The notes: generated by a model not told the origin, from the sequence alone. A DNA stretch of 29,117 nucleotides from Candidatus Eiseniibacteriota bacterium (GCA_031431875.1 JANPEF010000056.1:1-29117); one strand, 5' to 3'. Positions 1 through 20,274 are shown, numbered from the stretch's first letter. Made by a program: numbers and translations.

Positions 1-1051
1 GAAGGCCGCCGTAACGCCGCCGACGAGGTCGACGCCGCCGCCGACACATGCGGCGAAGCTCACTCCCGCTGCGCCGTCGCTCCGTCCGAACGTGGCCGCG
101 GCGAAGCCGATGGTGAGCCCCGCGAAGCAGTCGCTGGCGGCCGCGGCCGCGAGCCAGCCGGGCTGGTCGTTCCGCAACACCCAGGCCGGCGGCGCCAGCA
201 CGACGAAGGTCGTGGCGACGACGGTGGCGGGTGGTCCGCCTGCGGCGACGAAACCCGCCCCAGTGAAGCCCGCGACGAAGGTGGCCGCGAAGCCCGTGGC
301 GAAGCCCCCGGTCCAGGCGGCGGTGGCGGCGAAGCCTGCCGTGCCTGCAGCGAAGCCCGTGGCGGTGGCGGCGAAGCCTGCCGCCCCTGCGGCAAAGCCC
401 GTGGTGATCGCCGCGAAGCCGGCGGCGCCCGCGGCGAAACCGTCAATGAAGCCCACGGCCGTCCCGACGAAGCCGATGCCTGGCGTCCGGGTTGCCGGTT
501 CGTCGACGGCGGCCGCGATCGCGAAGCCGAAGACGAAGCCGCCGATCCCGATCGCGGCGAAGGTTGCGGCCGTGACGGCCGGCGCGACGGTCACCGCCAA
601 CCCCGTGAAGGGAGCCCCGAAGCCCGTGGCCGCCCCGCAGCAGGTCGCCGCGCAGACCAGCAATAAGGGCACGCCCATCGTGCCCGCCGTGCAGACGCTC
701 GGCGCGGCGTTCATGGAGCAGCGCGAGATGTACGTCTACAACAGCCTTGACCGTCGCGACCCGTTCCAGTCGCTGGTCTCGGGTTCTTTTGAGGGCACGG
801 CCGGAACGCCGATGCTCGATGTCTCGAGCATGAAGCTCGTGGGCATCGTGTGGGGAGGCGCCGACAAGTTCGCCCTGGTGGAGGACAGCCATGGACACGG
901 CTACGTCCTGCGGGTCGGGGATCCGGTGCTGAACGGCTACATCGCGGGGCTCACGAAGGAAGAGCTTATCGTGAAGCAGTCGTCGTATGGCGATACCCAG
1001 ACGATCACGATTCAACTCCAGCGGAAGGATGGTGTCTCCAATGCGAACTGA
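1..1051 (+). CDS. pilP: Type IV pilus assembly protein PilP-like, 5'-truncated by the window, with long Ala/Lys/Pro-rich N-terminal region
   Basis: Frame is open from position 2. C-terminal domain has the PilP-type YxxxxRRDPF motif (YVYNSLDRRDPFQSL) followed by KLVGIVW...ALVED...GYVLRVGD. Overlaps the downstream secretin start by 11 nt. Confidence 0.8.
   Translation, partial: KAAVTPPTRSTPPPTHAAKLTPAAPSLRPNVAAAKPMVSPAKQSLAAAAASQPGWSFRNTQAGGASTTKVVATTVAGGPPAATKPAPVKPATKVAAKPVAKPPVQAAVAAKPAVPAAKPVAVAAKPAAPAAKPVVIAAKPAAPAAKPSMKPTAVPTKPMPGVRVAGSSTAAAIAKPKTKPPIPIAAKVAAVTAGATVTANPVKGAPKPVAAPQQVAAQTSNKGTPIVPAVQTLGAAFMEQREMYVYNSLDRRDPFQSLVSGSFEGTAGTPMLDVSSMKLVGIVWGGADKFALVEDSHGHGYVLRVGDPVLNGYIAGLTKEELIVKQSSYGDTQTITIQLQRKDGVSNAN
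323..448 (+). repeat. Three imperfect 42-bp tandem units encoding (V/I)AAKPAxPAAKPxx
   Basis: Units 323-364, 365-406 and 407-448 encode VAAKPAVPAAKPVA / VAAKPAAPAAKPVV / IAAKPAAPAAKPSM. Confidence 0.85.
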
Positions 1052-2453
1052 CGTCCTCGTCGCGACCGCGGTCCTGGCCTTCGCGGCCGTCGTGGACCCG
1101 GCGCTCCCGATCTTCTCTCCCGTGTCGGTGGCGTATGCCCAGACGCGAAACGCCCCGACGGGCGTGACGCGGACGGGCTCGGGCCGCATGTCCCTTGACG
1201 TGCAGGGCGCCGAAGTCCGCACCGTCTTCAGGAGCATCGCCGAGTTCTCCGGCCGCAACATCGTGGTCGGCAAGGACGTCAAGGGGCAGGTGTCGCTGCA
1301 GCTCAAGGACGTGCCGTGGCGTGAGGCGCTTAACTCGGTCTGCCGCACGCAGGGCCTCGATGTCGTCGAGGAGGGCAGCGTCCTCCGCGTCGACGAAGCC
1401 GCCAAGCTGCAGGGTGAGGTGCTCGCCCGCCAGCAGAACGAGTCGCAGCGCGAGACCGTCGCCCCGCTCGACACGCGCGTGGTCAAGGTCAGCTACGCCA
1501 AGGCCGACGAAGTGCGCAACGCGGTGCAGTCCGTCCTGACCCCTCGCGGCAAGGTCGAAGTCGATGATCGCACCAACTCGCTGATCATCTCGGACCTCGC
1601 CTACAAGCTCGATGTCGCGGAGGCGATGGCGAAGCAACTCGACACCAGCTCGCCGCAGATCGAAATCATGGCCAAGCTGGTCGACATCGACCTGTCGGCG
1701 TTGCGCGACCTCGGCGTCAAGTGGGGGGTGACCAACCTCGACATCAACAACATCTCGAACCCGACCATCGTCGACAACCAGATCGGCGTCGACGCGCGGC
1801 CGGCGGATGCGGTCGGCAACATCGCCGGCATCCTGACGCGGCCGTGGGGCCAGATCGAGTTCCTGATCGAGGGCATGGAGCAGAAGCGCCAGGCCACGAT
1901 CATCTCGAATCCGCGCATCACGACGATCGACAACCGCCAGGCGACGATCCTGGTGGGGCAGAAGATTCCGCTCATCGTGCAGGACGTCGCGGGCAACGCG
2001 GTGTCGCAGCTGCAGACGATCGGCATCAAGATGACGGTCACGCCGCACCTGACCGGCGACAACCGGATCATGATGGACCTGCGTCCCGAGATCTCGGACC
2101 TGTCGACCCAGTCGACGGTCCAGGGCGGTGTCATCATCAACACGTCGGAAGCCGACACGCGGGTCATGGTCGAGGACGGCCAGACCGCGGTCATCGGCGG
2201 ACTCATCCGCACCAACACGGGCGAGGTGCACACCGGTGTGCCGATCCTCATGAACATCCCGTTCCTCGGCGCGCTGTTCCGCAGCACGTCGAAGGTGACG
2301 CAGCAGCGTGAACTGGTCATCTTCGTCCGGCCGAAGCTGGTCGAGCGTTTCGCCGATGCCTCGGGGGATCCGCTGAACGTCGAACCCCGGGTCATGCCAC
2401 GCGACCTGCTGTTCGATCCGACGAAGCCGTACGTTCCCAAGGTGATCCAGTAG
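1041..2453 (+). CDS. pilQ: Type IV pilus secretin PilQ (signal peptide, N0, N3, secretin domain; no AMIN domains)
   Basis: ATG 1041 with signal peptide ending AYA-Q. N0 motif SLDVQGAEVRTVF..IAEFSGRNIVV...LKDVPW; N3 VDDRTNSLII; secretin motifs ISNPRITTIDN and VEDGQTAVIGGL...VPILMNIPFLGALF...ELVIFVRP. Confidence 0.93.
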   Translation: MRTDVLVATAVLAFAAVVDPALPIFSPVSVAYAQTRNAPTGVTRTGSGRMSLDVQGAEVRTVFRSIAEFSGRNIVVGKDVKGQVSLQLKDVPWREALNSVCRTQGLDVVEEGSVLRVDEAAKLQGEVLARQQNESQRETVAPLDTRVVKVSYAKADEVRNAVQSVLTPRGKVEVDDRTNSLIISDLAYKLDVAEAMAKQLDTSSPQIEIMAKLVDIDLSALRDLGVKWGVTNLDINNISNPTIVDNQIGVDARPADAVGNIAGILTRPWGQIEFLIEGMEQKRQATIISNPRITTIDNRQATILVGQKIPLIVQDVAGNAVSQLQTIGIKMTVTPHLTGDNRIMMDLRPEISDLSTQSTVQGGVIINTSEADTRVMVEDGQTAVIGGLIRTNTGEVHTGVPILMNIPFLGALFRSTSKVTQQRELVIFVRPKLVERFADASGDPLNVEPRVMPRDLLFDPTKPYVPKVIQ

Positions 2454-11123: not shown

Positions 11124-12016
11124 GCCCCCGCGGCGCTCCCGACGATCGCTCGCTTGCTCCCGATCATCCCGACTATCCGACCCGACTGCGTGCCGCCGGT
11201 CCGGGCGGCGGCCCTGTGCTGTCCCTGCGGGGCCATGGCCCGTGGCCCGCGCGACCGGCGGTCGCCATCGTCGGCGCCCGGGCCGCGACGGCGTACGCCC
11301 GACGCGTCGCGTTCGAGGTGGCGCAGGCCTGCGCCCACGCCGGGGTCTGCGTGGGGAGCGGACTGGCCCGCGGCGTCGATGCCGCCGCGCACGCGGGGGC
11401 GCTTGCCGGGCAGGGCACGACCGTCGCGGTCCTCGGCACCGGCATCGACGTCGTCTATCCTCCGGAACACGCGTCCCTCTACGCCGCTGTGCGCGCGAAC
11501 GGAACGCTGGTCACGGCGTTGCCCGCGGGCGCGCCGCCGCGCCGTGGCCACTTTCCCGCGCGCAATCGCGTGCTCGCCGCGCTGTGCGACGGCGTCGTGC
11601 TGGTGCAGGCCGACGCGAACAGCGGCGCCCATCACACCGTGCGCGCGGCGCTGGCCGGTGGCGCCTGGGCGAGGATCGCGCCGTGGCCGCTCGACGACGT
11701 GCGCTACGCCGGAAACGCCGGGTGGCTCGCGCGCGGCGCTGCGGGCGTCGCACCACTGCTCGACTCGGCGGAGCCCGCGCGGTCTGCCCGCATCTCCCGC
11801 ACGGCCCGCGCAGCGGAGGGCGGAGGGGCTGCCGCAAGCGATTCGCCGTCGGCCCGCCTGCAGGCGGCGCTCGGCTCGCGGGGTCGCACGCTCGACGCCT
11901 TGGCCCGCAGCGCCGGGCTCGGTCCGGCCGAGGCCGCAGTCGCCGCACTCGAACTGGAACTGGCCGGCATCGCGCAGCGCATGCCGGGCGATTGCTATCG
12001 GCGGGGGAGAGGATGA
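11120..12016 (+). CDS. dprA: DNA-processing protein DprA/Smf (no N-terminal SAM domain; C-terminal winged helix); start probably CTG
   Basis: DYPTRLR...L.LRG lies upstream of the first GTG (11216). VAIVGAR, SGLARGVDAAAH, TVAVLGTGIDVVYP, FPARNR; C-terminal LELELAG....PG. CTGA overlaps the HEAT stop. Confidence 0.88.
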   Translation: MSPRGAPDDRSLAPDHPDYPTRLRAAGPGGGPVLSLRGHGPWPARPAVAIVGARAATAYARRVAFEVAQACAHAGVCVGSGLARGVDAAAHAGALAGQGTTVAVLGTGIDVVYPPEHASLYAAVRANGTLVTALPAGAPPRRGHFPARNRVLAALCDGVVLVQADANSGAHHTVRAALAGGAWARIAPWPLDDVRYAGNAGWLARGAAGVAPLLDSAEPARSARISRTARAAEGGGAAASDSPSARLQAALGSRGRTLDALARSAGLGPAEAAVAALELELAGIAQRMPGDCYRRGRG

Positions 12017-13995
12017 GCGGCTCGCCGGTGCGCTTCGCGCACCGTCTCGAATATGCCGCGGTGCTGGCGCTCAGTGCGCTGGCTGGGGCATTGCCGCTGC
12101 GCGCCGCGCTCGCCCTGGGGCGTGGACTCGGCGCCGGGGCGTTTCGGCTCGGCGTCCGGCGGGGCGTTGCGACGGCGAACCTGGCGCGGGCGTTCCCCGA
12201 GAAGAGCGCCGGCGAGCGCGCGGCGATCCTGCGCGAGGCGTACGGGCACGCCGGCATGACGGTGGTCGAGCTGCTGCGCGCCGGGCGCATGGGGGAAGGC
12301 GAACGCGCCGCGCTCGTCGGGGCGATGCGGGGTGTCGAGCTCGTGACGGAGGCGCTGCGGCGCGGGACCGGAGTGGTGATCGCGTCCGCCCACTTCGGTG
12401 CCTCGGAGCTGATGGCCGTGCAGGCGGTCGATGCCGGCGTCCCCATCCACTTCTTCGTGCGCGCCCAGTCGAATGCACTGGTCGATCGCCTGCTCACCGC
12501 GCGGCGTCGCGCGCTCGGTGCGGGGATCGTCGGCCACGGCGAGCGTGGCGTGCGCGAGGCGTTGACCCAGTTGCGCCGGGGCATCTGCCTGGCGGTCATG
12601 GCCGACCAGGACGCGGGAAGGGACGGCGTCTTCGTGCCGTTCTTCGGCCAGCCCACATCGACGCCGCCTGGCCCGGCCGAGTTCGCGCTCCGCACCGGGG
12701 CGCCGCTGTTCTTTGCCGTCCTGCACCGCACTGCTGGCGGCGGATACGCCGGTGTGGTGGAGCCAATCCGCGCACCGCCACGGAGCGGGGACCACGCCGC
12801 CGACGTGCGCGAGCTCACGCGCCGCCACGCCGCCGCGCTCGAGCGTGTCATCCGGGAGCATCCGGCCCAGTGGATGTGGACGCATCGCCGGTGGAAGACA
12901 TCGCCGCCGGCGGCGCTTCTGCTTGCCGTGGCGGCACTGGTGATCCTGGTCGCGCTCGCCCCGGGCGGAGCCGTGGCTGTGCCTGCCGACTCCACGTCGG
13001 GGCTCGCCGGGCGCGCGCCGGAGAGTACGTTCGACGGCGCCGGCAGCACGGTCTTTCCGCTCGAGCGGGCGCGCGTACGGCGGCTGTTCGAGGACGTGCG
13101 GATCCGGCGCGGCGACGAGGGATGGTCGATTGTCGCCGACGAGTGGTTCGAGGCGGGCGTGGCGCCGGCGACTGTGGTGTTCGCGTTGCCCGACTACCGG
13201 GCAAGTCTCGCCGGGGCGGGCGACACGAGCATCGTGCGCGGCACGCTGCGCGACCTCGAGGTCACCGTCGACGGATTGCCCATGGCGATCGAAGCCCTGC
13301 CCGGCAACGCCGCGCCCGGCGCCGACCTCGGCGGAATCGAGCGCATCCTTCGCTTCAGCGTTCCGTTCGCTGCCGGGGAGAAACGCGGCATCCGTCTGGT
13401 CTACCGCATCGGCGAGTCGCACACCGACGCGGGGGAGCCACTCCTCTTCTACTACCGCAATCCCGGATCACTGTGGGAAGGGGAAAGCCCCAAGTCGACC
13501 GTGCGTGTCGATCTCGGCGCATGGTCCGCCGACGACCTGGTCATCGGTTGGCTGCGCCCGCGGGGCTATCGTCTGTACGCGGATTGCGTGCTGTGGCATC
13601 GCCCGGCGGGGGAGGAGCTGGCCGACATCGCCCTCGGGGCGCGGCCGCTCGGGGATCCGCTCGGTGCCTTCAGCGACCGAAAGCTCGGCCCGCTCGGTCT
13701 CGGCCTCGAGGCGCGCGAGGAGTGGATCGAGCGCCTGACGGCGAATCAGCTGCGCTACTTCATCGCCTGGTTGCCGGCGCGGCGCGGCGGGACCCCGCCC
13801 GGCAGCGGTCCCGGCTCGGGGCTGACGGGCGAGGTCTGGTGGAAGCCGGTCCGCGACTTCCGCGAGGAGAAGCTGTCGACCGACGAGCGCCGGCTCCTGG
13901 CGCGACTGCGCGAGCGGCTTGATCGCTGGGAGCGGTCGCGGATTCCATTTTTTGCGGGGCCGCCCTTCCTTCCGGGCGATCCTTCTGCCCCCTGA
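12013..13995 (+). CDS. LpxL/HtrB-family lipid A (lysophospholipid) acyltransferase fused through a TM/signal segment to a DUF4424-like plus YARHG-like module (660 aa)
   Basis: ATGA overlap. NLARAFPE, SAHFGASE (HxxxxE), ADQD, VPFFG, PAQWMWTHRRWK; then hydrophobic 12910-12978 and about 340 further residues with no stop. Confidence 0.85.
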   Translation: MSGSPVRFAHRLEYAAVLALSALAGALPLRAALALGRGLGAGAFRLGVRRGVATANLARAFPEKSAGERAAILREAYGHAGMTVVELLRAGRMGEGERAALVGAMRGVELVTEALRRGTGVVIASAHFGASELMAVQAVDAGVPIHFFVRAQSNALVDRLLTARRRALGAGIVGHGERGVREALTQLRRGICLAVMADQDAGRDGVFVPFFGQPTSTPPGPAEFALRTGAPLFFAVLHRTAGGGYAGVVEPIRAPPRSGDHAADVRELTRRHAAALERVIREHPAQWMWTHRRWKTSPPAALLLAVAALVILVALAPGGAVAVPADSTSGLAGRAPESTFDGAGSTVFPLERARVRRLFEDVRIRRGDEGWSIVADEWFEAGVAPATVVFALPDYRASLAGAGDTSIVRGTLRDLEVTVDGLPMAIEALPGNAAPGADLGGIERILRFSVPFAAGEKRGIRLVYRIGESHTDAGEPLLFYYRNPGSLWEGESPKSTVRVDLGAWSADDLVIGWLRPRGYRLYADCVLWHRPAGEELADIALGARPLGDPLGAFSDRKLGPLGLGLEAREEWIERLTANQLRYFIAWLPARRGGTPPGSGPGSGLTGEVWWKPVRDFREEKLSTDERRLLARLRERLDRWERSRIPFFAGPPFLPGDPSAP

Positions 13996-13999
13996 GCCT

Positions 14000-14039
14000 G
14001 CGGGCATTCTGCAACAGGTGCGGCACATTGCCCCACCTG
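14000..14039. promoter_or_regulatory. Paired dyad sites, candidate enhancer (UAS) for a sigma54 activator; could alternatively be a terminator hairpin
   Basis: CAGGTGCGGCA-CAT-TGCCCCACCTG (14015-14039; 11-bp arms, one mismatch) plus a related GCGGGCA-TTC-TGCAACA (14000-14016). Confidence 0.35.
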
Positions 14040-14186
14040 CCGGCCCGCCGTGCGCCGTTGATTCCGGACAGCGGTTCCGAGAACCCATCCAATGCGGTGT
14101 TTCAAACGTAAAGCCAACAGCGACTTGAGGTCTCCATCGAAGGTGCTTTCTAGACCAGGCTCCGGGTCCGGCAAGGCCCGGCAAAG

Positions 14187-14202
14187 TGGCCCGGCCCTTG
14201 CA
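14187..14202 (+). promoter_or_regulatory. Sigma54 (RpoN) -24/-12 promoter
   Basis: TGGCCCGGCCCTTGCA has the exact GG-N10-GC spacing of TGGCAC-N5-TTGCA. SD AGGAGG at 14231-14236 before ATG 14244. Confidence 0.7.
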
Positions 14203-14243
14203 CTTCAGCGTTCCGGTCACGGTCCGATCCAGGAGGGATCCGC

Positions 14244-16217
14244 ATGCCCGGTTCACGCGCTCCGATGAATCCATTGTCCCGCTGGGCCTCGCCCGACGCT
14301 CAGCGCACCCTCGCTCTCTCCGCGCTCCTGCTCGAACCCGTGGAGGAACGGGCCATCCTGCGTCGCACGGTGGCGGCACTGGCCGCGCCGGGTGGCCTCG
14401 GGTTCACCCGGTCGTTCCTGTTTGTCTACGATGCGGCGCACGGCACCTTCGTGGGTCGCCATGCCGTCGGCCCCGCGGACGCGAACGAAGCGCGACGGGT
14501 CGCCCACCTGGCGCTCGACGAAGGCGAATTGCTCGCCGCGCTGCGGGACCTCGACGACGACGCTCTCGAAGCCGCCGCCCCCGAGTCGACCGCGCGCGTG
14601 CGGACTCTCGCGCTGCCGCTGGAGCCCGGCGTGCATTCGCTGCTCGACGAGTGCCTGGCCAGAGGCGCCGGTCGCCTCGGCGCGAGCCCACCGGGGCCCA
14701 CCGGCGCGGTTGCGACCACGACGTGGGGCGATCGCCTCGCGCTCGGCGGTTGTGCGGCGGCGCTCGTGCGGGCATCCGACGAGCCGGTCGCGCTGCTGAT
14801 CGCCGATTGCGCGTTCACCGGAGCAGGAGTCAGCGACGACGACGTGGCGCGGCTGGGCCACGTGGCACGGCTCGCGGGCGCGGGCGTCGAGCGCGCCCGC
14901 GCGTCGCGCCTGCTCGCCGAGCGCGGCGGCCAGCTCGCCACCCTCGACGAGGCGGGAAAGAGCGCCGTCCAGACGACCAGCCTGCGCACCGAGCTCGCGC
15001 TCCTGGTCCGCGCCGCGACGCAGACCCTGTCCTGTCGCGGCGGCGTCCTCTGGCGCACGGCGGGTGAGCGCGCCACGCTGCTGCTCGAGAGCGTGCACGT
15101 CGCGGATGACACCTGTGACCCGCTCCGCGAGGCGCATGCGCTCGAGCCGCTGGTGCGCGACGCGCTGCGCGAGCGGGCGGCGCGTGTCGTGCGCGACGTC
15201 AGCCGCGATCCGCGGGTCGATGCCGACCGGGCACGCGGCTTCGGCCCGGCCCTCCTGGCGCCGGTGATGACGCCGGGCAGCGCGGCGCCCGCCGGCTTCC
15301 TGGTGCTGTGGAACCCGGCGGCGCACGGCCCGGGCGAGGCGGCCGGCTTCGATCGCGACGACCTGCGTTTCGCCGAGGCGATGGCCGGCACGATTGGGGC
15401 GGTGCTCGCCCAGTCGGCGCTGTCCGATCGCGTGCGTCGCGCCGAGGAACGCGCGGGCGACACGCGCAAGCAGCTGGCGACGGCCGAGCGCCTGGCGGCG
15501 CTTGGCGAGCTGGCGGCGCGCGCCGCGCAGGAGGTGAAGGCACCGCTCGCCTCGATCGGCGGGTTCGCCCGCCGCGTGCACAAGGGACTGGCCGAGGACG
15601 ATCCGCAGCGCGAGTACGTCGAAATCATCCTGCGCGAATCGGAGCGGATCGAGCGCCTGCTCGCCGAGCAGATGCAGTTCGTCCGCCTGTCGCGGCCGCG
15701 ACTCGCCATCGAGAGCGTGAACCAGCTCCTGACCGCGGCGCTGACCGGGCGCGGCGAGGCGCTGGCGAAGAAGCGCGTGCGCGTGCTCAAGAAGTTCGCA
15801 CCCGACGTGCCGCCGCTGCTGCTCGACGCGGAGAAGATCTCGCAGGTCGTCGCCAACATGCTCGACAGCGCGCTCGACAACATGCCCGGCAATGGGCGCC
15901 TGCGCGTCGAGTCGCGCCGGGCGCAGGGTTACATCGTGGTCGAGATCGCGGGGGAGGGTCCGCCGCTGGCGGGGGAGATGCTCGAGCAGCTGTTCGTGCC
16001 CTTCACCACCTCGCGCCGCTCGGGCGAGTCGGTCGGGCTGGCGCTCGCCCAGCAGGTCGTGCAGAGTCACGGCGGCGAGATCCGGGTGCGCTCGGAGGGG
16101 GACTGGGGGGTGATCTTCTCGTTCACGCTGCCCGTGTCCGAGAATCAGGATCGACGGCGCGCCAACGACCGGCGCGGTGTCCGGAACGATCGCCGGAACC
16201 GCTTTCCGGCGGCCTAG
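14244..16217 (+). CDS. Cytoplasmic GAF-GAF-HisKA-HATPase protein with degenerate catalytic motifs (pseudo-histidine kinase) and DRR-repeat tail
   Basis: ERLAALGELAARAAQEVKAPL (H-box, H replaced by Q), NMLDSA, AGEGPPL, LFVPFTT, GESVGL, HGGEIRV; N-terminal GAF-like regions; no TM segment seen. Confidence 0.88.
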   Translation: MPGSRAPMNPLSRWASPDAQRTLALSALLLEPVEERAILRRTVAALAAPGGLGFTRSFLFVYDAAHGTFVGRHAVGPADANEARRVAHLALDEGELLAALRDLDDDALEAAAPESTARVRTLALPLEPGVHSLLDECLARGAGRLGASPPGPTGAVATTTWGDRLALGGCAAALVRASDEPVALLIADCAFTGAGVSDDDVARLGHVARLAGAGVERARASRLLAERGGQLATLDEAGKSAVQTTSLRTELALLVRAATQTLSCRGGVLWRTAGERATLLLESVHVADDTCDPLREAHALEPLVRDALRERAARVVRDVSRDPRVDADRARGFGPALLAPVMTPGSAAPAGFLVLWNPAAHGPGEAAGFDRDDLRFAEAMAGTIGAVLAQSALSDRVRRAEERAGDTRKQLATAERLAALGELAARAAQEVKAPLASIGGFARRVHKGLAEDDPQREYVEIILRESERIERLLAEQMQFVRLSRPRLAIESVNQLLTAALTGRGEALAKKRVRVLKKFAPDVPPLLLDAEKISQVVANMLDSALDNMPGNGRLRVESRRAQGYIVVEIAGEGPPLAGEMLEQLFVPFTTSRRSGESVGLALAQQVVQSHGGEIRVRSEGDWGVIFSFTLPVSENQDRRRANDRRGVRNDRRNRFPAA

Positions 16218-16237
16218 TTGGGGGTGACGCGGGCCGG

Positions 16238-16267
16238 TTGACGCGAGCGCGTCGCCGCTGGTATAAA
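16238..16267 (+). promoter_or_regulatory. Sigma70 promoter for the tRNA / glmM-glmS transcript
   Basis: TTGACG 16238-16243, 18-nt spacer, extended -10 TG-G-TATAAA ending 16267. Confidence 0.7.
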
Positions 16268-16330
16268 CCTGTCGTGGACGACGCAGGCTCGGGGGTCGAC
16301 CCCGAGCCTCTGCCGTTGTGGAGCAAACGG

Positions 16331-16406
16331 GCGACCCTAGCTCAGTTGGTAGAGCACTAGACTGAAAATCTAGGTGTCCCCGGTTCGATTCCGGGGGGTC
16401 GCACCA
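16331..16406 (+). tRNA. tRNA-Phe (GAA)
   Basis: 76-nt cloverleaf: acceptor GCGACCC/GGGTCGC, anticodon arm CTAGA-CTGAAAA-TCTAG, T loop TTCGATT, encoded CCA. Confidence 0.97.
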
Positions 16407-16425: not shown

Positions 16426-16501
16426 GCTGGTGTAGCTCAGCTGGTAGAGCAGCGCACTCGTAATGCGCAGGTCAGCGGTTCGATTCCGCTCACCAGCTCC
16501 A
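16426..16501 (+). tRNA. tRNA-Thr (CGT)
   Basis: 76-nt cloverleaf: acceptor GCTGGTG/CACCAGC, anticodon arm GCGCA-CTCGTAA-TGCGC, encoded CCA. Confidence 0.97.
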
Positions 16502-20176: not shown

Positions 20177-20274
20177 GGGAGCGCATGGGATCTGGTGGTC
20201 CCCGGGGACTTCAAATCCTTCGGTCGGTCGCGGATCGCGGCCGAGGTGGGTTCGATTCCCACACGTTCCCGCCA
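20177..20274 (+). tRNA. selC: tRNA-Sec (TCA)
   Basis: 98 nt. 8-bp acceptor GGGAGCGC/ACGTTCCC plus GCCA, 6-bp D stem with TGGT loop, anticodon loop CTTCAAA, 9-bp variable arm, 5-bp T stem GTGGG/CCCAC: the bacterial 8/5 tRNA-Sec fold. Confidence 0.95.

Follow-up and report, generated by a model that had tools for sequence, protein, structure and literature searches.

The window, that is, the whole 29,117-nt stretch of DNA that was analysed, contains a gene for a protein with the domain order of a HisKA kinase and degenerate catalytic motifs, followed by two tRNA genes. The features of the locus are:

14231..14236, + strand: AGGAGG, a Shine-Dalgarno-like sequence with the ATG 7 nt further on (from the sequence; same start in close homologues).
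14244..16217, + strand: pseudokinase reading frame, GAF-GAF-DHp-CA, 657 aa, no internal stop, AlphaFold model with a mean pLDDT of 91.
14340..14888, + strand: GAF-type domain 1 (about residues 33-215) with a helical insert and a GLGFTRS motif, from the GAF domain of orthologue L090 and a fold match.
14976..15407, + strand: GAF domain 2 (residues 245-388; Pfam GAF_2, E 4e-9).
15501..15689, + strand: DHp/HisKA domain (residues 420-482; Pfam), with a conserved PLASIGGFARR segment and helix 2; omega 0.043 relative to genome G002.
15528..15530, + strand: CAG, Q429 at the phospho-His position of the H-box AQEVKAPL; His in 28/133 orthologues.
15540..15542, + strand: GCA, A433 at the E-x-x-N/T phosphatase position (from the sequence).
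15825..16139, + strand: CA/HATPase_c domain (residues 528-632; Pfam); the nearest solved fold is the ThkA CA domain (phmmer to 3A0T, E 2e-14; VIA, Z 21.9, rmsd 2.0, 148 residues).
15867..15869, + strand: AGC, S542 at the second Asn of the N-box, here NMLDSA (alignment to ThkA and ZraS).
15951..15965, + strand: G1 box GEGPP, with Gly570 at the adenine-binding Asn/Asp position and an ancestral PP (alignment to WNSGPPIP of ThkA).
16023..16040, + strand: G2 box GESVGL, aligned to GTGLGL of ThkA and the intact orthologues.
16143..16214, + strand: C-terminal tail N634-x-DRR-x3-DRR-x4-DRR, predicted disordered (133-row alignment; pLDDT below 50 over most of residues 634-657).
16218..16330, no strand: 113-nt gap, where intact relatives have a TrrA-type receiver gene in a gap of 450-700 nt (locus comparison).
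16331..16406, + strand: tRNA-Phe, a phylum-wide landmark at a fixed place behind the gene (tRNA call and neighbourhoods).
16426..16501, + strand: tRNA-Thr, followed by glmM and glmS (tRNA call and neighbourhoods).

The DHp and HATPase_c folds of a HisKA kinase are recovered by Pfam, in the model and by fold search. However, the phospho-His is missing, and alignment to ThkA and ZraS shows an ATP site broken at the second N-box Asn (S542), the G1 Asp/Asn (G570) and the GxGxG of G2 (S596), residues whose roles are described in the accessible parts of PMC5633905 and bioRxiv 2022.12.12.520123. The first N-box Asn (N538), E430, G594/G598, the F-box LFVPF and the HGG motif are unbroken, and H446 is the only His near the H-box. 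The predicted fold is intact: the model, generated from a 115-row alignment, is of low confidence only in the ATP lid (residues 587-591) and most of the tail, and its residues 16-405 match the tandem GAF domains of PDE5A (Z 20.2, rmsd 5.1, 330 residues). Pfam returned no match over the N-terminal 220 residues of this copy; in the intact orthologue L090 it recognises a GAF domain (E 1e-10).

The original prediction had placed losses in the H-box, N-box and G2 box within an otherwise intact gene (reading frame, F-box, HGG motif and Shine-Dalgarno sequence), with no response regulator in the window. Each substitution was recovered at its coordinates (Q429, A433, S542, GESVGL), the frame is open over its 657 codons with AGGAGG 7 nt before the ATG, and no receiver gene was found in the window. 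Its reading of GEGPP as a ruined DxGxG stands for the change of Asn/Asp to Gly570, but overstates the damage, since the missing second Gly is ancestral: G1 reads NDGxxIP, NEG or TDG in the His-intact orthologues and WNSGPPIP in ThkA, which autophosphorylates. The accessible part of a preprint on VanS describes a hydrogen bond between the Asn and adenine in ThkA and a second Gly apparently without nucleotide contact (bioRxiv 2022.12.12.520123), which makes the intact members of the phylum plausible active kinases and leaves Gly570 as the only G1 loss here. The notion that G1 is degenerate phylum-wide, and hence that no member is active, was rejected, because this Asn variant also occurs in ThkA and VanS. 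The G1 position is occupied by His in 84 of the 105 His-less orthologues, alike in families f13, f8 and f3/f7, and N542 is often replaced by Tyr or His; these side chains may fill the emptied pocket.

The nearest genome, G002, is 95% identical and has the same residues at the motif positions, and a contig from run X2, which may be the source sample, spans the whole stretch and differs only at 14528 and 15449, neither of them in a motif. Sequencing error is therefore ruled out. Between 13900 and 16600, no sigma-70-like promoter was found (0 expected). Short contigs from one metatranscriptome cover 14233-14448, 14482-14754 and 15463-15639; as contigs, they do not demonstrate expression, and the material may include DNA.

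The named homologues, 59-65% identical, belong to Ca. Eisenbacteria, which is therefore probably the phylum concerned. Orthologues were detected in 38 of 41 close genomes and in 132 of 151 genomes phylum-wide (E<=1e-60), in single copy except in G021 (two) and G016 (split). Searching the 19 misses with a broader profile added seven orthologues that have the tail and are followed by tRNA-Phe, as well as an N-terminal half cut off by a contig end, raising the total to at least 139/151; G058 holds one further candidate. Both copies in G021, the only genome with two (L013, L152), are His-less. The 41 neighbourhoods share a recurring order of kinase, (receiver), tRNA-Phe, tRNA-Thr, glmM, glmS and ridA, with the glmM cluster in 38, glmS in 33 and ridA in 31. 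Just upstream of the kinase, 24/41 loci have a divergent DUF3467 gene, which is absent here (13996-14243) and was not found in this genome. The preceding frame, 12013-13992 (+), joins a lipid A acyltransferase (PF03279, residues 16-296) via a hydrophobic segment to a 360-residue domain without a Pfam match, a fusion that is a single frame in all six family-f1 relatives fetched (L265-L270). Elsewhere, the window carries a tRNA-SeC gene at 20177-20274 (+) and, at 1-2453 (+), a type IV pilus cluster with pilP-like (weak, E 0.086) and secretin-like genes.

In the intact relatives, a stand-alone receiver gene directly follows the kinase. The best PDB match of this receiver family's profile is TrrA of Thermotoga maritima (E 2.4e-38; next structure 1.5e-24). 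The core of an intact orthologue matches ZraS (3.9e-42) and ThkA (2.3e-38), the CA domain of the present protein matches ThkA first, and kinase-TrrA pairs without the DRR tail also occur in Myxococcota and Calditrichota (4/80 loci). These matches identify a ThkA/TrrA-type kinase-receiver pair as the ancestor. The ThkA-like core is retained here by descent, with the Asn of the NxG variant lost; the adjacent TrrA-like receiver, present beside 34 of the 133 orthologues, is missing at the locus, and a genome-wide profile search found no TrrA orthologue in this genome (98% complete). A relocated orthologue was considered and rejected, the best receiver scoring 73.5 bits versus 95-173 bits for six adjacent orthologues outside the profile. 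Nor did the 32 f7 genomes searched yield a TrrA orthologue at E 1e-24, and the matches near 1e-25 to 1e-29 in f1, f3, f4 and f5, which sit off-locus in frames of 260-1065 residues, are read as longer regulators. Several relatives have a longer receiver-bearing regulator 20-25 kb from the kinase. Two observations concern degenerate receivers: in this genome, a stand-alone receiver (G000:C131:43043-43429, +; 53 bits on the TrrA profile) has Glu at the phospho-Asp position (EAIVLEPAADG), and at two f13 loci (L075, L145) adjacent TrrA-type receivers without the phospho-Asp (VVLASEL, VILGINL) lie beside His-less kinases, forming pseudokinase/pseudo-receiver pairs.

After exclusion of three broken or truncated copies (G016, G038, G125) from the 136 fetched, 133 orthologues were compared. 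His and receiver are both present in 23 and both absent in 90; 11 have the receiver without the His (ten of f13 and G046), four, all of f3, have the His without the receiver, and five at contig ends are undetermined. All five catalytic marks are kept in 23/133, and all five losses (His, N/T433, N542, G1 Asn and middle G2 Gly) are combined in 21/133. Only three of the 105 His-less proteins keep all three ATP boxes, and 60 keep N433. Some degeneration goes further: GAF1 is absent in f4, f5 and part of f10, and the DHp is almost unrecognisable in L238, L239 (f12) and L242 (f4), where the F-box region and the DRR tail remain; in f12 the C-terminal half of the CA domain and the tail persist despite DHp decay. 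This genome also encodes a second degenerate kinase (G000:C147:49049-51982, -), a hybrid whose H-box reads SMSGELRAPM, with Gly for His, whose N and G1 boxes are broken and whose receiver domains are weak.

On a tree computed without the motif columns, the His state changes at least eight times and the receiver state twice. When 48 of the 133 rows and 5 other proteins were rooted with 13 outgroup kinases, the intact lineages fell at the base and the His-less forms were nested at four points: G046, three genomes of f10, f13, and the f1/f3/f4/f5/f7 group. Inheritance is vertical; the family groups reappear when GlmM+GlmS from 31 loci are used for the tree, with three receiver changes. These trees, built quickly, supported by SH-aLRT alone and containing long branches, suggest that the His was lost separately at least four times and the receiver two or three times, depending on whether f1, f2 and f3 are one clade. 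Both orders of loss are seen, the receiver going first in f3 and the His first in f13. His loss and receiver loss agree in 2/7 independent pairs (the other five do not differ), which is not significant, and with so few pairs no association of His loss with loss of the receiver, N, G1 or G2 reached significance in independent-pairs tests. A close metagenomic homologue, P0006 (71%), has His at 429 with the same broken N, G1 and G2 boxes and is nested among Gln-bearing proteins; its His, like that of the four f3 proteins, could be a retention or a reversion.

Omega values were obtained by the Nei-Gojobori method on hand-picked close pairs. Between this gene and that of G002, omega is 0.062 for the core, 0.058 for the CA domain and 0.13 for the sensor region. 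The 17 His-less pairs have core omega values of 0.004-0.19 (median 0.05) and DHp values of 0-0.23, and the seven His-intact pairs have core values of 0.04-0.21 (median 0.12; dS above 1 in four). The gene is thus under strong purifying selection, and the pairs give no sign of relaxation inside the His-less clades. Four copies look broken (G016, G038, G125 and G031), by mutation or assembly error. The earlier proposal of a conserved protein with clade-conserved substitutions and dN/dS below 1, as opposed to a sequencing error or decay, agrees with the identical motif residues in G002, with the 105/133 orthologues that lack the His and with the low omega in 17/17 His-less pairs. The picture that it had named as contrary evidence, of relatives keeping H, N and DxG around one relaxed copy, is not observed: 9/9 family-f1 genomes are His-less. 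Clade-wide motif loss and purifying selection are both features of pseudokinases of the DivL/PsmA kind.

The DRR tail is conserved throughout the orthologues as N-x-DRR-x3/4-DRR-x3/5-DRR, with variable spacing between units. Tail residues N634, R638, R643, R644 and R650 are invariant in 133/133, as are E465, F587, H609 and P630; W621 and R637 are kept in 132/133 and R651 in 131/133. The tail is absent from the 13 outgroup kinases and from one protein placed in the ingroup (P0132). In this genome, the triple motif occurs in 1 of 3013 proteins called with a simple gene caller, with 0.05 expected from shuffles. Among the 90 proteins lacking both His and receiver, R513, R552, E556, R558, R614 and R616 are kept in 82-89 (82-90 with W621), counts that are inflated by the shared ancestry of f1, f3 and f7. 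Judging by strand alternation in the model, this charged strand stripe would be solvent-exposed, on the same side as the exit of the tail from the last strand. To the original prediction, the comparison adds descent from a ThkA/TrrA-type pair with the receiver gene deleted right after the reading frame, recurrent loss, and a triple-DRR tail that is the best-conserved element.

A related motif is known from Cle/CSP, in which, according to the accessible parts of PMC7382256 and PMC5677366, a disordered C-terminal DRR-x11-(R/K)RxxD segment binds dimeric c-di-GMP; the authors of the Cle study speculate that the Arg-rich extension replaced phosphorylation control (PMC5677366). For CckA, a c-di-GMP site is described at the CA sheet edge (Y514/K518/W523; PMC5026420, in part). 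The spacing [DE]RR-x11-[RK]R is found in 83/133 orthologues, including this protein, and the full motif DRR-x11-[RK]RxxD in 7/133, not including it. The tandem [YF]xGP[DE][RK]R is absent from this tail by inspection, which has neither an aromatic residue nor a Cle-like GP; the basal lineage L155-L164 has one GP[VI]DRR. GGDEF domains were found in 151/151 genomes, with two strong ones in this genome; being so common, their presence is weak support for a c-di-GMP ligand.

Taken together, the strong selection on a dead gene, the recurrent loss and the constant survival of the tail make a second, non-catalytic signalling job exerted through the tail likely. The protein is probably a pseudokinase kept for a role that needs no catalysis and centres on the CA sheet and tail. 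The tail would have been acquired in the group's ancestor, when the kinase was still active, and may have supplied a second function in ligand or partner binding. The phosphorelay to an output-less receiver could then have become dispensable and been dropped in several lineages, outlived by this second function; signalling would proceed without phosphoryl transfer via the CA beta-sheet face and the triple-DRR tail, in a protein presumably dimerised via GAF, coiled-coil and DHp as in other HisKA kinases. By its resemblance to the Cle/CSP DRR peptide, the likeliest ligand would be a guanine-nucleotide messenger such as c-di-GMP. We regard c-di-GMP itself as a candidate with somewhat more against it than for it; otherwise, the partner of the tail would be an acidic protein. 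A bolder extension, which we hold more tentatively still, is that the triple-DRR tail forms a linear c-di-GMP-binding module of a kind not described before and that, on the ThkA-type kinase of the phylum ancestor, messenger binding replaced phosphotransfer in several independent conversions to a c-di-GMP receptor. If this is true, the intact, receiver-less, His-less and DHp-decayed intermediates are all still alive. The tail is equally conserved in the intact kinases and therefore does not by itself explain the loss of catalysis.

In this protein, the DHp is as constrained as the CA domain (omega 0.043 and 0.058), which would fit a receiver- or kinase-binding role too. The strongest alternative, which we consider unlikely yet worth serious attention, is that the dead kinase uses its DHp to bind a phosphorylated receiver from a different system, or to pair with and block a second kinase, with the GAF or CA domains relaying state. 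This use of the DHp would resemble that of DivL or RetS, and the fold search returned 7N0E, by its title a RetS structure. The PLASIGGFARR segment and helix 2 (REYxEIIxRE..R.ER) remain conserved in f1, f3 and f7 long after the loss of TrrA; the His-less pairs have a DHp omega of 0-0.23; this genome has 31 HisKA matches and many receivers; the receiver gene is retained beside a His-less kinase in f13 and G046 (11/133); and DivL, which in the accessible part of PMC4211667 has no kinase or phosphatase activity and binds DivK~P, provides a precedent. Set against this are the cognate receiver not found in this genome, a SIGGFARR helix seen by inspection in no other kinase of the genome, and the decay of the DHp in f12 and part of f4/f5 where the tail stays; moreover, dimerisation alone would lead to DHp conservation too.

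It is distinctly less probable that the tail, instead of binding a small ligand, acts as a signal (nucleic-acid, membrane, localisation or proteolysis) in a dead kinase that serves as a structural or localised hub. Its Arg-rich, predicted disordered sequence and variable DRR spacing would suit such a role, and PsmA, a His-less kinase, is described as a cell-pole scaffold partner (PMC12963549, in part). However, with strict D/E-R-R triplets and, two positions ahead of the first, an Asn that never varies, the tail looks more like a specific site than bulk charge. We give little credence to residual enzyme activity, whether as ATP binding, as a phosphatase or through phosphorylation of a different residue. 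The fold, N538, E430, the F-box and G594/G598 are intact, N433 is kept in the 60 His-less orthologues mentioned above, and a VicK double N-box mutant retains some autokinase activity (PMC5633905, in part), but five catalytic residues are lost together here, a state seen in 21/133 orthologues, His-less proteins with three whole ATP boxes are rare, and the H-box has no His nearby except H446. Least probable of all is a decaying relic retained merely for its position before the tRNA and glmM/glmS genes, for which the four broken-looking copies, the long basal branches of some His-less lineages and the loss of GAF1 in f4, f5 and part of f10 could be cited, and which is largely refuted by the low core omega of all His-less pairs, the full reading frame in 133/136 fetched copies and the invariant tail.

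Retention for a non-catalytic role of the CA sheet and tail remains our preferred reading. The orthogroup is a natural experiment: a phylum-wide core gene exists in intact, half-lost and fully dead states, both orders of loss are represented, and the transition from kinase to pseudokinase is testable by comparing sister proteins. It is tied to ThkA/TrrA, a structural model pair, and the 24-residue tail is synthesisable for nucleotide-binding tests, though the organisms are uncultured. Among the literature matches listed, with subscription journals largely outside the search, no description of this family or its tail was found.

Judged by these motifs, the protein is apparently neither an active HisKA kinase, nor part of a complete ThkA/TrrA pair, nor a member of the Cle/CSP motif class. 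With ThkA/TrrA (TM1359/TM1360; PDB 3A0R, 3A0T, 3A0U) it shares a kinase core for which ThkA is the best or second-best solved relative, and its intact orthologues share the NxGxxIP variant of G1 and an adjacent receiver resembling TrrA up to the SWAADxYVVKS segment. ThkA has a PAS domain, the His, the N-box, the G1 Asn and GTGLGL, and no DRR tail, whereas the pseudokinase is without all these catalytic marks and without the receiver gene. Like Cle/CSP, it is a two-component protein with a short disordered DRR-bearing C-terminal extension; unlike them, it carries three DRR units without the tandem [YF]xGP[DE][RK]R, stacking Tyr or terminal Asp, and on a CA domain, whereas the extension of Cle is attached to a receiver.

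To our knowledge, few bacterial histidine pseudokinases have been characterised (DivL, PsmA). DivL of Caulobacter is likewise a His-less HisKA fold under selection (model versus 4Q20: Z 21.6, rmsd 6.8, 219 residues), but it has Tyr at the His site and PAS domains, binds ATP weakly and still has DivK as its receiver partner, whereas the present protein has had its cognate receiver gene deleted and its ATP site damaged more completely. In PsmA of Streptomyces, too, the residue at the His site varies, the phosphatase motif is gone, the ATP boxes are degenerate, the gene context is conserved and no partner lies nearby; PsmA differs as a PAS-containing hybrid that also has a receiver and a long disordered linker (PMC12963549, in part). 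While the accessible text of that report describes no intact orthologues of PsmA, intact, intermediate and dead forms coexist here in one orthogroup.
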